A stretch of DNA of 17,173 nucleotides from a virus (Duplodnaviria; Heunggongvirae; Uroviricota; Caudoviricetes): the IMG/VR virus record IMGVR_UViG_2675903324_000013; one strand, given 5' to 3'. The notes beneath the pieces were generated by a model, which did no database searches, was not told the DNA's origin, and was given only the letters and a program-made list of their open reading frames with translations. Within the stretch, counting starts at the first letter, position 1. Every line of letters starts with the position of its first letter. This document shows positions 2,466 to 9,384 of the stretch, piece after piece. A program made the position numbers and the translations under genes.

Positions 2466-2520
2466 GTGTGTTGACACGTCAATTACACTCCATATAATGT
2501 GTTTATGTGTATATACACAT
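2466..2520 (+). promoter_or_regulatory. Near-consensus sigma70 promoter TTGACA (2471-2476), 16-bp spacer, TATAAT (2493-2498), flanked by GTGT-N4-ACAC operator-like sites
   Basis: Hexamers read directly. GTGTgttgACAC at 2466-2477 overlaps the -35; a 16-bp perfect palindrome ATGTGTATATACACAT at 2505-2520 overlaps the predicted transcription start. Confidence 0.5.
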
Positions 2521-6137: not shown

Positions 6138-6340
6138 AAAGTGAGTAGCAAAAGTGAGTAATGGTGAGGTTTTTACAAAATATTAACACGATTACTCACT
6201 TTCTCACCTGTATACATACTCAAAAGTGAGGAGTAAAAAAATGCTTATGAAACATGCACATATAAAACACGAAAATCTCAAGCGAGACGAAGTGAGACGC
6301 GTTAAAAAGTGAGGCGTAAAAGTGAGCGCGAGTGAGGAGA
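6137..6340. repeat. Iteron array, putative origin of replication: about 10 copies of AAAGTGAG(G/T) in both orientations
   Basis: GTGAG at 6141, 6154, 6164, 6226, 6292, 6309, 6322, 6332 and inverted CTCAC at 6195, 6203; spacings of 10 and 13 bp; AT-rich stretch in the middle; directly downstream of the Rep gene. Confidence 0.55.
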
Positions 6341-6348
6341 TAACCAAA

Positions 6349-6591
6349 ATGCGCAGAGACAGAACAGCGCCAAAATATAAAGCGTTAGACATGACAGAGC
6401 ACGCTTTAAAGGTGGCAATCAGAACGATAGACCGCCACGCGGGGGAAGGATACGCGAAGGAACATCCCGACCTGATAAGCGCATTCATGACCACAGCGGC
6501 GGCAAACTTTGCCACGCTGACAGAACGGGAGATTGCCGAAGCGGAACAGGTAACAACCATCAACGTTAAAACCGGAGAGGTGGAATCATGA
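6349..6591 (+). CDS. Hypothetical protein (80 aa)
   Basis: ATG at 6349 with GAGGAG 9 nt upstream; the track start (GTG 6322) lies inside the iterons. Confidence 0.45.
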   Translation: MRRDRTAPKYKALDMTEHALKVAIRTIDRHAGEGYAKEHPDLISAFMTTAAANFATLTEREIAEAEQVTTINVKTGEVES

Positions 6592-6911: not shown

Positions 6912-7322
6912 ATGACAGCACAAATTGCAGCTTACGGGCGGCTGGTGGCTGACCCGCAGTTAAAGACCACCAGCAAGGGTACACAAATGACGATGGCGAG
7001 TATGGCGGTCCCCCTTCCGTGCAGCCAGGCAGATGACGGAACGGTGACGATGTGGTTATCCGTCCTGGCATTTGGCAGACAGGCCGAAGCACTGGCAAGG
7101 CACCGCAAAGGTGAACTCCTGACCGTGGCGGGTAACATGCAGATCAGCCAGTGGACCGGACAGAACGGGGAAACACGGCAGGGGTATCAGGTTATTGCAG
7201 ACAGCGTAATCAGTGCCCGCGCGGCACGTCCAGGCGGGAACAGACGCAAAACCACAGGCACACAGGGTAATCAGCCACCAGCGGGAGGCGATGACCCTTA
7301 CGGTGACGGTATTCCGTTCTGA
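6912..7322 (+). CDS. ssb: Single-stranded DNA-binding protein (OB-fold SSB with acidic C-terminal tail …DDPYGDGIPF)
   Basis: Pattern …GRL..DP.L…W..V..FG..AE…KGE…V.G…W…GE.R… parallels bacterial SSB; Gly-rich linker; terminal DGIPF resembling the canonical DDDIPF tail; GAGGTG RBS. Confidence 0.8.
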   Translation: MTAQIAAYGRLVADPQLKTTSKGTQMTMASMAVPLPCSQADDGTVTMWLSVLAFGRQAEALARHRKGELLTVAGNMQISQWTGQNGETRQGYQVIADSVISARAARPGGNRRKTTGTQGNQPPAGGDDPYGDGIPF

Positions 7323-7332
7323 GGGGGTGACG

Positions 7333-7569
7333 ATGGTACATGACCGCATAGCGGAGGAACTCGAGGCAAAAGGCTTTTACCGGAGGGCGTCGGCGCGATG
7401 GGGTGAAGTCATGCAACTGGTGGAGACAGACAAGGAACGGCATCAGGTTACGATGCGACGGCTGGAATGTTCCAGGAAGGCACAGAGGCCACCGGAGAAC
7501 TACGCAGACCTGAGAAATGCAGTAAATCGCACTTATGCAGACATGGGGCTGAGCAAATTAGCTGAGTAG
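7333..7569 (+). CDS. Small regulator-like protein (78 aa), possibly PerC-family
   Basis: GAGGGGG RBS; basic helical protein with the motif DRIAEELEAKGFYRRASARWGEVM, which I recall as PerC-like. Assignment is from memory, not searched. Confidence 0.4.
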   Translation: MVHDRIAEELEAKGFYRRASARWGEVMQLVETDKERHQVTMRRLECSRKAQRPPENYADLRNAVNRTYADMGLSKLAE

Positions 7570-7591
7570 GAATATCAGAACCACACCACGC

Positions 7592-7615
7592 AGCCGGAGC
7601 AATCCGGCTTTTTTT
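7592..7615 (+). terminator. Strong intrinsic terminator T1 (stem AGCCGGA / TCCGGCT, GCAA tetraloop, U7)
   Basis: Read directly; follows the stop at 7569. Confidence 0.7.
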
Positions 7616-7710
7616 GCGTCATTTGAAATGGTATGGCGCACTACTGGCTTTTCGTCACGGTCCGGCATAGTTACTATCTGAAACAAACAGACACAACAGA
7701 GGAAAAAACA

Positions 7711-7935
7711 ATGCCGACGAAATTTGATGAGATATTAAAACAGCGTGATAAATACCATGCTGACAACATGGAGACGATGAACATCACTGATTACCGAGCA
7801 TTCCTGGAAACGGGGGCGCTGATTGAAAAGGATCATCATGGTTTTGTTCGTTGCGCGCTATCCGGTGAAATGCTGGCGGTAAATCCTGAACAGACAGATG
7901 CATTGATAGAATTTCTGAAAGGGATCAGGGACTGA
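7711..7935 (+). CDS. Hypothetical protein (74 aa) in a terminator-bracketed cassette (moron-like)
   Basis: ATG 7711 with GAGGA RBS; possible own promoter (-10 TACTAT at 7672-7677); flanked by two copies of the same terminator. Confidence 0.5.
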   Translation: MPTKFDEILKQRDKYHADNMETMNITDYRAFLETGALIEKDHHGFVRCALSGEMLAVNPEQTDALIEFLKGIRD

Positions 7936-7945
7936 GCACCCATAC

Positions 7946-7967
7946 AGCCGGAGCAATCCGGCTTTTT
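7946..7967 (+). terminator. Intrinsic terminator T2, 23 bp identical to T1 (cagccggagcaatccggcttttt)
   Basis: Read directly. Confidence 0.7.
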
Positions 7968-7986
7968 GTTATTTTTTGTAAATTAT

Positions 7987-8016
7987 TTGTTCGTGGTTGT
8001 TCCACGTTGTTCACTG
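7987..8016. repeat. Three tandem 10-bp repeats TTGTTCgtgg / TTGTTCcacg / TTGTTCactg overlapping a candidate late promoter
   Basis: 10-bp phasing; the third unit is a possible -35 (TTGTTC), with TATTTT at 8029-8034 after a 16-bp spacer; the 15-mer ttgttccacgttgtt recurs at 15574-15588. Confidence 0.45.
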
Positions 8017-8071
8017 AGCGGATCGGCATATTTTACCCGAACTGAATCATGATTATTCTCGCCCGTGGTGC

Positions 8072-8226
8072 CAGGACGCTGGGGCCACTTTCCCGCCTGT
8101 TAATGTGCTCGCCAATATTCATTACCAGGCGGGAAAACGATCGGTGCGATTGCTGATTCCCTTATGAAAAACGGTTGAGTTTTTGCCGCGTCCTGGAGTT
8201 CCTTACTTAACCCCAGGACTTTTTTT
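8072..8226 (+). promoter_or_regulatory. Structured leader of the head-gene operon with alternative pairings and a sequestered Shine-Dalgarno
   Basis: 8188-8196 (GCGTCCTGG) can pair either with 8072-8080 (CCAGGACGC, 9 bp) or with 8213-8219 (CCAGGAC, 7 bp). The latter hairpin is followed by T7 and contains the AGGA SD of the capsid gene (8215-8218). A further 9-bp stem with 26-nt loop lies at 8092-8135. Confidence 0.4.
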
Positions 8227-9384
8227 ATGCCGAGAATAATCGAATTACGCCAGCAGAAAACCGCCATTAAAAATCAGATGCGCGACATGCTGGAGAACGC
8301 GGAAAAAGAAAACCGCAGTCTTAACGATGCTGAGGGCGCAAAATTTGACGAATTACGCGCTAAAGCTGAATCCCTCGATAAAGACATTTCCCGCCTTGAA
8401 GCCATTGCAGACGAAGAGCGCAGCAAGCCAGGTAAAAGCAGCCAGACCACTGACCCCGCAGAACTACGCAGCTACATTCTGACAGGTGAAACCCGCGCAT
8501 TAAGTACAGGCGTTCCCGCTGATGGTGGTTATACCGTTATCCCCGAACTGAACACCGAAATCATGCGAATGCTGGCGGATGAGTCCACCATGCGCCGCAT
8601 CTGTACCGTGAAAAAAATCAGCAGCAACGAGTTTAAGCAGCTTGTTTCCGCTGGCGGTGCGACCGTTAACCACGGTGAAGAGGGTAAGGCACGCGAACAG
8701 ACCAGCACCCCGCAGATTAACGAGGTGAGCATTAAGCTGTATCCGGTCTATGCGTACCCGCGCACCACACAGGAAATCGTGGATTTTTCCGATGTGGACA
8801 TCCTTTCATGGCTGACGGGTGAGATTGGCGACACCTTCACGGAAACCGAAGAAAGCGATCTGGTTGTGGGCGACGGTGACAAAAAAGCAAAAGGTTTTTT
8901 ATCCGTACCCCGTGCAGAGAAGAACGACAAAGAGCGTGATTTTGGTACGTTGCAGGTAATTAAACCTTCCGAATCTCTGGCGTGGACATCTGCGGACCCG
9001 CTGATCGACCTGAAATTTGCATTACGTAAAAAATACCGCAAAAACGCGGTCTGGGTGGTTAACTCCACGACGGCGGCAAAACTCCAGAAGGTGAAGAACG
9101 CGAACGGTGATTACATCTGGCGTGACCGTTTACAGGCGGGTGATCCTGATACGTTGCTGGGCCTTCCGGTCGAATATCTGGAGTTTATGCCTGATAACGT
9201 TATTGCCCTGGGTGACTTCAAACGCGGTTACTACATTGTTGATCACGAAACAGGTGTTCGCACCAGACCGGACAACCTCACAGAGCCGGGCTTCATCAAA
9301 ATTTTCACGCAGAAATATTTAGGCGGTGGCGTGGTGGATTCGAACGCGATCAAGATTCTGGAACTGCCACAGGACGACGATTAA
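8227..9384 (+). CDS. Major capsid protein, HK97 fold, with N-terminal coiled-coil delta domain
   Basis: 385 aa; coiled-coil N-terminus (IELRQQKTAIKNQMRDMLENAEKE…) and a C-terminal region paralleling HK97 gp5 (…VWVVNSTTAAKL…GDYIW…LLGLPVEYLEFMP…GDFKRGYYIVDHETG…). Confidence 0.9.
   Translation: MPRIIELRQQKTAIKNQMRDMLENAEKENRSLNDAEGAKFDELRAKAESLDKDISRLEAIADEERSKPGKSSQTTDPAELRSYILTGETRALSTGVPADGGYTVIPELNTEIMRMLADESTMRRICTVKKISSNEFKQLVSAGGATVNHGEEGKAREQTSTPQINEVSIKLYPVYAYPRTTQEIVDFSDVDILSWLTGEIGDTFTETEESDLVVGDGDKKAKGFLSVPRAEKNDKERDFGTLQVIKPSESLAWTSADPLIDLKFALRKKYRKNAVWVVNSTTAAKLQKVKNANGDYIWRDRLQAGDPDTLLGLPVEYLEFMPDNVIALGDFKRGYYIVDHETGVRTRPDNLTEPGFIKIFTQKYLGGGVVDSNAIKILELPQDDD

Follow-up and report, generated by a model that had tools for sequence, protein, structure and literature searches.

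The 17,173-nt viral DNA stretch IMGVR_UViG_2675903324_000013 (Caudoviricetes; hereafter the window) is a capsid-forming phage-inducible chromosomal island (cf-PICI) of the EcCIEDL933 type. At the boundary between its early genes (replication and PerC) and its capsid operon lies a 74-codon gene that is flanked by two copies of the same hairpin, each of which has the design of a Rho-independent terminator. We propose, at a probability of roughly 60%, that the gene and one hairpin form a terminator-bounded accessory unit that is exchanged at the hairpin repeats and that encodes a satellite protein. The evidence for this comes from the hairpins themselves, from the precise presence or absence of the unit in related islands, from the combinations of modules that are joined at the same hairpin elsewhere and from the conservation and reported expression of the protein.

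A repeat search of the window revealed a 28-nt repeat (26/28 identical) at 7586-7613 and 7940-7967, with a spacing of 354 nt. It contains the exact 23-nt core CAGCCGGAGCAATCCGGCTTTTT at 7591-7613 and 7945-7967, and about 2e-6 such pairs of 23-mers would be expected by chance in a window of this size. The initial annotation had described two identical terminators on either side of a 74-aa open reading frame (ORF); the repeat is real, with coordinates that needed correction by 1-2 nt. Both copies consist of a 7-bp stem (AGCCGGA/TCCGGCT, five GC pairs), a GCAA loop of the GNRA type and a T-run, and both were called by a terminator scan. Copy 1 (7591-7616, plus strand; stem 7592-7598/7603-7609, T-run to 7615) starts 22 nt past the perC stop codon and ends in six T residues. 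Copy 2 (7945-7967, plus strand) starts 10 nt past the stop codon of the 74-aa ORF, and its run reads four T, one G, TT, A and six T. The predicted RNA folds had energies of -15.7 kcal/mol for copy 1 and -12.8 kcal/mol for copy 2 (z-scores of -4.4 and -3.8), and none of 200 shuffled sequences folded as well. In EDL933 and EC4115 the loop of the upstream copy is GAAA, which is again of the GNRA type. At least 120 species-representative genomes of unrelated phyla carry the 21-base pattern AGCCGGAGNAATCCGGCTTTTT, each with a single copy, compared with about 0.3 occurrences expected by chance. Of 110 such copies in unrelated genomes, 83 start no more than 60 nt after a co-oriented ORF, compared with 9.5% of random positions at the same loci. 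This generic placement at gene ends and the retention of the GNRA loop argue for a terminator function at the RNA level and against a specialised recombination site. The hairpin is predicted to be an ordinary Rho-independent terminator, and a search of 7000-8600 against Rfam gave no match.

To compare the slot across relatives, the whole ranking of E. coli matches to a query spanning window positions 7333-8500 was sampled. The matches fell into full-length cf-PICIs including that of EDL933 (class a; L001, L007), cf-PICIs that are about 340 bp shorter with nothing annotated between the PerC and capsid genes (class b; L002, L003), islands matching query positions 1-635 only (class c; L004), islands matching from query position 642 onward only (class d; L005) and islands matching query positions 1-286 only, ending just after copy 1 (class e; L006). 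In L002, whose flanks are 97.9% identical to those of the window and whose capsid protein is identical, the left flank of copy 1 is followed by a single hairpin and then by the right flank of copy 2; L003 has a similar arrangement. The class c island occupies the same att site in the O157:H7 strain EC4115 and is of the classical PICI type; its capsid-like gene differs, and it encodes a decoration protein and a Nu1-type TerS. Its order is PerC, hairpin, 74-aa homologue, second hairpin and then unrelated DNA, and megablast matches to classical PICIs end at query position 635, which is window position 7967, the last base of copy 2. The class e island is a classical PICI that has one hairpin and lacks the gene. 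L002 and L006 thus lack exactly one unit of 354 bp, comprising the gene and one hairpin, and the comparison of L002 and L003 with the window, and of L006 with L004, therefore reveals an identical one-unit presence/absence in two types of PICI. The indel is bounded by the repeats in both L002 and L006, which bears out the earlier description of a discrete, insertion-like unit. Parts of window positions 7200-8300 match 841 of 5,426 complete E. coli genomes. Among the 5,426, the gene with its leader is present in 539, the capsid leader (at least 80% coverage) in 361 and both in 214, so that about 40% of these cf-PICIs lack the gene. No homologue was detected elsewhere in the fetched parts of the empty islands, which covered 3-5 kb on each side.

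The same hairpin joins a wider range of modules. In IMG/VR contigs its upstream partners are three PerC alleles, the 3' end of the SSB gene, an 83-aa gene (p83, homologous to window 6340-6591) and the 3' end of the 74-aa gene. Its downstream partners are the leader of the cf-PICI capsid operon, a classical leader, the leader of the 74-aa gene and at least three others, among them a third late module with a protease-capsid fusion. These upstream (U1-U6) and downstream (D1-D6) partners, at least five modules on each side, occur in many combinations, and in other PICIs the hairpin stands at the end of the early operon, behind SSB, p83 or PerC. The breakpoints at the hairpin ends and the mosaic combinations show that the early-operon terminator is a seam for module exchange. 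The 74-aa gene unit was found after PerC in 16 of 48 contigs and after SSB or p83 in 0 of 43 (Fisher p ~1e-5), although the contigs are not independent samples. As a separate observation, in L153, L163 and L168 the third type of late module in E. coli PICIs, in which a 75-aa gene precedes a protease-capsid fusion of 380-640 aa, is joined to the early genes via this hairpin directly after SSB or the 83-aa gene, with PerC absent.

The gene itself lies on the plus strand at 7711-7935 (74 aa and a stop codon), as originally annotated, and encodes WP_001142405.1, an acidic protein of 8.5 kDa with a pI of 5.0 and a net charge of -5. Between two E. coli alleles there are nine synonymous and six non-synonymous changes (dN/dS ~0.15, dS = 0.23), pointing to a real gene under purifying selection. 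The protein matched phrog_1957 over residues 1-74 (E 1.5e-39) and had no match to Pfam, NCBIfam or PADLOC models, in agreement with the initial impression that it carries no recognised motif. Its close homologues are nearly all from E. coli. An exhaustive phmmer search returned homologues of 66-96 aa in 23 representative clusters, with identities of about 35-45%, from five further genera (Enterobacter, Klebsiella, Citrobacter, Gilliamella and Arsenophonus), and every member is annotated as hypothetical. The family alignment revealed conserved Y28, D41-H-H-G-F, S/T-G-E, Q61 and L69, and the window protein carries these motifs. A structure prediction had been suggested as a check, and the resulting AlphaFold2 model (pLDDT 79.7, pTM 0.59) has three short helices and a three-stranded sheet, with one more helix at the C terminus. 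Comparison of this model with known structures gave no fold match, DNA-binding domains included. A profile search of PDB sequences gave a marginal local match to residues 83-121 of N.BspD6I (E 0.0016, domain E 0.35), which the structure comparison did not confirm and which stays a weak lead. A literature search by protein accession found no mention of the protein.

The gene was originally credited with its own promoter and ribosome-binding site. The latter is as described: the Shine-Dalgarno sequence GAGGA lies at 7699-7703, 7 nt before the ATG, within a conserved CA-rich 5' leader (7680-7710, plus strand). The sequence AACAAACAGACACAACA is invariant in all four aligned leaders, and a 73%-identical relative also retains the CA-rich stretch. 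The proximal 58 nt of the leader have one difference between the alleles, compared with nine at about 45 synonymous sites in the ORF (p = 0.002). For the promoter, we identified a candidate weak sigma-70 site at 7649-7677 on the plus strand, with a -35 element TTTTCG (7649-7654), a 17-nt spacer and a -10 element TACTAT (7672-7677), matching the consensus at 8 of 12 positions. The 73%-identical relative keeps both hexamers and their spacing (TTTACG/17/TACTGT). The promoter-like site is therefore conserved but weak, and a consensus promoter scan of 7614-7710 called no promoter; we infer that 7649-7677 may serve as the promoter of the small gene.

Evidence for expression comes from published proteomics. 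Amigo et al. 2016 (PMC5120812) analysed O157:H7 strains by tandem mass tag (TMT) proteomics in exponential phase in DMEM-F12, without mitomycin C. They reported a 9-kDa 'phage protein EDL933_1785', encoded on CP-933C along with the PchE activator, that was 5.35-fold up in the supernatant of a clade 8 strain, where the PchE-like protein was also up. Indirect but strong evidence identifies EDL933_1785 as the orthologue of the small gene product, WP_001132080.1. The capsid gene is numbered 1786 in the cf-PICI papers, and the reported mass agrees with the predicted 8.5 kDa. In addition, the 406-nt intergenic region upstream of EDL933_1785, in which perC is stated to be unannotated (PMC5120812), corresponds to the distance between SSB and the ORF in EDL933 (407 nt in L007).

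These observations can be combined into a mechanism. The early operon would end at a Rho-independent terminator, and the same hairpin forms the common early/late junction of E. coli PICIs, whatever the last early gene. Two accessory units lie between SSB and the capsid operon, first perC and then the 74-codon gene, each trailed by a copy of the hairpin. Copy 1 would halt the early/PerC transcript in vivo. Expression of the small gene would depend chiefly on the weak conserved promoter in front of it, perhaps supplemented by read-through, and the protein could thus be made during quiescence of the island. Copy 2 would halt the transcript of the small gene and shield the capsid operon, which would start from its own control region at a conserved box described below. 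The 23-28 bp of identity would allow homologous recombination between the copies, or with the single hairpin of another island, to delete or restore exactly one 354-bp unit. Recombination at the hairpins would also reshuffle neighbouring modules, leading to the presence/absence pattern and the many-by-many mosaic. The product is a conserved, dispensable, acidic 8.5-kDa satellite protein that would act by binding another protein.

Several points weigh against this reading. The literature yielded no transcript-end (Term-seq/3'-end), transcription start site or termination data for this locus. The candidate promoter matches 8 of 12 consensus positions and was not called by the scan. The identification of EDL933_1785 rests on gene numbering, mass and the 406-nt spacer rather than on protein sequence. 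Detection of the EDL933 orthologue in uninduced cultures is in line with the original idea of expression independent of the island programme; spontaneous induction of the island in a subpopulation could also explain the proteomic signal. The empty islands could reflect loss of the unit, or the occupied islands its gain. Lastly, the association with PerC, seen in contigs that are not independent samples, may be plain linkage, and homologues in other genera occur without PerC.

A possible but unlikely alternative is that the unit is cargo, a cassette inserted recently into a variable slot and carrying a defence, superinfection-exclusion or host-modulation gene with island-independent expression, as first proposed for it. 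Such a cassette would account for near-identical islands that differ by presence or absence with clean repeat boundaries, for the promoter-like site and for expression without induction, and among anti-phage and anti-defence factors small proteins with no known fold are frequent. The unit also lies in the mid-island accessory region of PICIs, where Tai (tail assembly inhibition) defence genes are found (PMC11364771), but the truly variable genes sit downstream of it. The GC content of the gene is 0.444 compared with 0.508 for the island, but this places it at the 13th percentile and not as an outlier. A comparison of the slot across relatives revealed a single type of cargo: among 120 IMG/VR contigs with the hairpin, all 15 two-copy cases enclose the 74-aa gene, with the copies 354 nt apart in cf-PICIs and 363-364 nt apart in classical PICIs. 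In other genera, too, homologues occupy this position. They lie between the primase/helicase region and the capsid operon in satellites of Gilliamella (L008), Enterobacter (L011) and Klebsiella (L018), with unrelated genes intervening before the capsid operon in the last two; in 16-kb elements of Arsenophonus the homologue is located after TerL. In the class d island (L005, LH50-c), a different PerC allele is followed directly by an 82-aa homologue (38% identity, E 1e-19) with no hairpin between them, and then by a different terminator, a minus-strand 157-aa gene and the same capsid leader. In a more diverged E. coli cf-PICI (L016), the end of a ProQ/FinO gene overlaps the start of the homologue (hhalign probability 99.9%), which is followed by a different terminator and the same leader box. 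No terminator was found upstream of the homologue in L005 or L016, where it is apparently part of the early operon, and a hairpin upstream of the gene occurs in the E. coli PerC lineage only. In the 73%-identical relative (L017), copy 1 is recognisable but decayed, and copy 2 retains its stem with a new loop. It follows that the duplication is old, predating 27% divergence of the protein, and the downstream copy alone is consistently kept.

Nor did a defence function find support. A PADLOC-DB 2.0 search returned no families at E <= 1 for the 74-aa protein. A tblastn search of 50,697 phage genomes gave no match, unlike what is seen for typical morons and defence genes, which are exchanged between phages and satellites. 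The gene is present in EcCIEDL933, an island that did not interfere with plating of its helper phages HK106 and HK446 (bioRxiv 10.1101/2022.09.08.507074). The mutagenesis of EcCIEDL933 covered its packaging genes, a set without the 74-aa gene. Collectively, these comparisons suggest that the gene is a long-standing resident of satellites rather than swappable defence cargo.

The position at which cargo does vary appears to lie just downstream. The leader of the capsid operon starts with a conserved box (7976-8012, plus strand) that comprises TTGTAAATTATTTGTTCG (7976-7993) and TTGTTC at 7987, 7997 and 8007, a 10-bp spacing. All cf-PICIs examined, among them elements of E. coli, Enterobacter, Klebsiella and Citrobacter, carry the box with 0-3 mismatches from consensus; the capsid gene lies about 215-250 nt downstream of it, and any extra cargo genes invariably precede it. 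In about 60 E. coli genomes, whose cf-PICIs are diverged, the match is confined to these 38 nt. The box is likely to be a late-operon promoter or operator. The resulting order is early genes, 74-aa gene, terminator, variable slot, box, leader and capsid operon. The slot is empty in the window, where copy 2 and the box lie just 8 nt apart. Elsewhere it is occupied by genes for proteins of 157 aa (L005 4466-4939, minus strand), 169 and 246 aa (L011 6164-6673 and 6730-7470, minus strand) or 223 aa (L018 6270-6941, plus strand), none of which had a Pfam or PADLOC match above threshold; the slot of L005 also carries a bidirectional terminator. This looks like the true variable cargo slot, with candidate defence or accessory genes, and annotators may look for such genes there, between the terminator of the 74-aa gene and the capsid-leader box.

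A further alternative is that the product of the gene is a core regulator of the early-to-late switch, acting at the box or leader to activate or anti-terminate the capsid operon. Across genera the 74-aa gene precedes the control region of the capsid operon, and the box comes directly after the terminator of the gene in the window, in L016 and in Citrobacter L009 and L010. The leader contains several hairpins, one of which has a T7 run directly next to the capsid ATG, and the protein has marginal winged-helix-like sequence similarity. We nevertheless consider this role quite improbable. The roughly 40% of E. coli cf-PICIs that lack the gene have the same box, leader and capsid gene. Classical PICIs that carry the gene have a different late region from which the box is absent, and in L005, L011 and L018 cargo genes intervene between gene and box. 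The protein is acidic, with its net charge of -5, and its model resembles no DNA-binding domain. We also recorded two structures in the capsid leader. A hairpin at 8190-8226 (GTCCTGG...CCAGGAC; -14.1 kcal/mol, z -3.6) is followed by the T7 run that abuts the capsid ATG at 8227, holds the sole Shine-Dalgarno-like AGGA in its 3' arm and is conserved in L002, L003, L005 and L007; it could act as a terminator or attenuator, or in translational control of the capsid gene. At 8089-8136 lies an inverted repeat with 17-nt arms (TTTCCCGCCTGTTAATG and CATTACCAGGCGGGAAA, 94% complementary) and a 14-nt spacer (folding z -1.95), which is shared by E. coli cf-PICIs of this type and not conserved in L016.

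It is very improbable that the hairpins are dedicated cassette-recombination sites, integron attC-like or similar, rather than primarily terminators. Identical hairpins flank one gene, its gain or loss is precise and many module combinations meet at this junction, as such sites would predict. Yet the perfect 18-nt stem-loop with its T-run is far from the imperfect-palindrome architecture of attC, and the same sequence serves as an ordinary gene-end terminator in unrelated phyla. The island has no integron integrase or extra recombinase, only its tyrosine integrase; one cargo type alone is found, and copy 1 can decay while the gene is retained. The idea that the ORF is no gene at all, and that the locus is two tandem terminators with spacer DNA, would fit its short length, the missing domain match and the spurious neighbours that PGAP annotates here (a 'trigger factor' pseudogene), but it is effectively refuted by the dN/dS of 0.15, the multi-genus family with conserved motifs, the confident secondary-structure model and the mass-spectrometric detection of the orthologue. 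The RefSeq features that cover the perC 3' end, copy 1 and the leader, namely a frameshifted 'trigger factor' pseudogene (L007 1742-1857) or a 42-aa hypothetical protein (L004 8230-8358), are almost certainly annotation artefacts.

The proposed accessory unit resembles several known systems. A moron, in the concept of Hendrix and Juhala, is an additional gene that has a promoter and a terminator of its own and lies between two genes that are adjacent in related genomes. The unit is similar in that it is a single small gene with a promoter-like site upstream and a factor-independent terminator downstream, in that its protein is detected without induction and in that close relatives (L002, L006) have the same neighbours without it in between. 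It differs in that it resides in a satellite, belongs to a family that was not found in the 50,697 phage genomes, has a position conserved across genera and so is not a recent add-on. Its composition is also not clearly foreign, and its upstream terminator is a duplicate of the downstream one. The hairpin also recalls the 'linker' sequences at module boundaries of lambdoid phages and the modular theory of Susskind and Botstein. In both, a short conserved boundary sequence is common to different modules and homology breakpoints fall on it, but here the boundary is a functional-looking terminator hairpin that occurs in tandem around one gene and would drive a precise indel. In Staphylococcus aureus pathogenicity islands (SaPIs), PtiA, PtiM and Ppi are small interference or regulatory proteins that are encoded upstream of the packaging genes and bind other proteins. 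By analogy, the 74-aa protein may be a comparable small satellite-specific protein encoded just before the packaging module, unlike them in that EcCIEDL933 does not interfere with its helpers.

Within PICIs, a mid-island accessory and immune hot spot was described by He et al. 2024 (PMC11364771), and PerC was reported as a PICI accessory gene by Fillol-Salom et al. 2018 (PMC6092414). The unit likewise lies after the replication genes and before the packaging genes, is optional among related islands and has the PerC gene directly upstream. It is unlike the hot spot in having no similarity to known defence families and in being long-resident, with the variable genes after it (L005, L011, L018); the Tai system is comparable by island location alone. 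The unit therefore seems to fit known kinds, as a moron-like accessory unit with a terminator as mosaic boundary, and its protein is uncharacterised but expressed.

What the protein does can be suggested tentatively. The protein is acidic and dispensable, occurs in satellites only, is linked to PerC in E. coli and increased together with PchE in the proteomics; on these grounds it might be a protein-binding accessory modulator linked to PerC, as partner, target or co-regulated factor, which we hold with low confidence. A structural role in the particle or a role as a DNA-binding switch is improbable. A bolder and rather unlikely proposal is that the protein is the founding member of a family specific to satellites, which cooperates with PerC-type regulators or counteracts them (or cooperates with ProQ/FinO-type proteins in other lineages) to control the early-to-late transition or dealings with host and helper, and that the terminator hairpin has been co-opted as a 'connector' for short-homology exchange of accessory units and late modules. 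If so, the connector hairpin would be a simple recombinase-free cassette system for satellites. The findings do not overturn current views of satellites. They place an uncharacterised, expressed small protein (the EDL933_1785 family) at an insulated position beside a PchE/PerC-type gene, in the prototype cf-PICI and in O157:H7 classical PICIs, and so give PICI researchers a concrete candidate gene. They also indicate that a plain terminator hairpin is the common seam where E. coli PICIs swap early-end genes and late modules, which helps to explain their mosaicism.

The assignment of the window to the cf-PICIs is based on its similarity to annotated islands. Window positions 7200-8300 are 100% identical to E. 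coli UC4224 (NZ_CP104472), and identity over the region to the prototype EcCIEDL933 is 92.8% (bioRxiv 10.1101/2022.09.08.507074). The features expected of a cf-PICI are present: an integrase, an AlpA-type regulator, a replication module, a PICI att site and a length of about 15 kb. In the annotation of NZ_CP104472, which contains the 100%-identical stretch, the island lies between roxA and phoQ. It has its own capsid, protease, portal, head-tail, HNH, TerS and TerL genes, and tail and lysis genes are absent. The early genes are an integrase, a small HTH regulator, an Icd-like gene, a DUF4222 gene, a RepA-type helicase, two genes for small hypothetical proteins and SSB. These are followed by the PerC-family regulator, the gene for the 74-aa hypothetical protein WP_001142405.1 and the capsid operon, whose order is HK97-type capsid, prohead protease, portal, head closure, connector, HNH, P27-type TerS and TerL. 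In the window, the PerC-family (PchE-like) gene is the last early gene before copy 1 (7333-7569, plus strand; Pfam PF06069, E 7.7e-33; annotated as PerC family in NZ_CP104472). The HK97-type major capsid gene, gene 1786 in the EcCIEDL933 papers, is the first of the packaging operon (8227-9384, plus strand).

The identity to UC4224 (L001) is only local, because that genome has about 1.27 kb of extra DNA further upstream. The extra DNA lies in the regulatory region, upstream of window position ~4200, and includes a second YlcI/YnfO gene; the coordinate offset between UC4224 and the window changes from 1027 at the integrase to 2301 at 7200. The island of the window is therefore a relative of that in UC4224 and not the identical one. 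In the regulatory region of the window, near small minus-strand genes, a perfect consensus sigma-70 promoter faces rightward at 2471-2498 (plus strand; TTGACA, 16 nt, TATAAT; 12/12), and this is presumably the main rightward promoter region of the island. Lastly, two complete records from Arsenophonus nasoniae (L012 and L013; CP123539.1, 16,022 bp, and CP038627.1, 15,977 bp) contain a full cf-PICI-like capsid and packaging set, a primase, a gene with a 'Derepression' domain and a homologue of the 74-aa gene, suggesting that they are possibly extrachromosomal cf-PICI-like elements.

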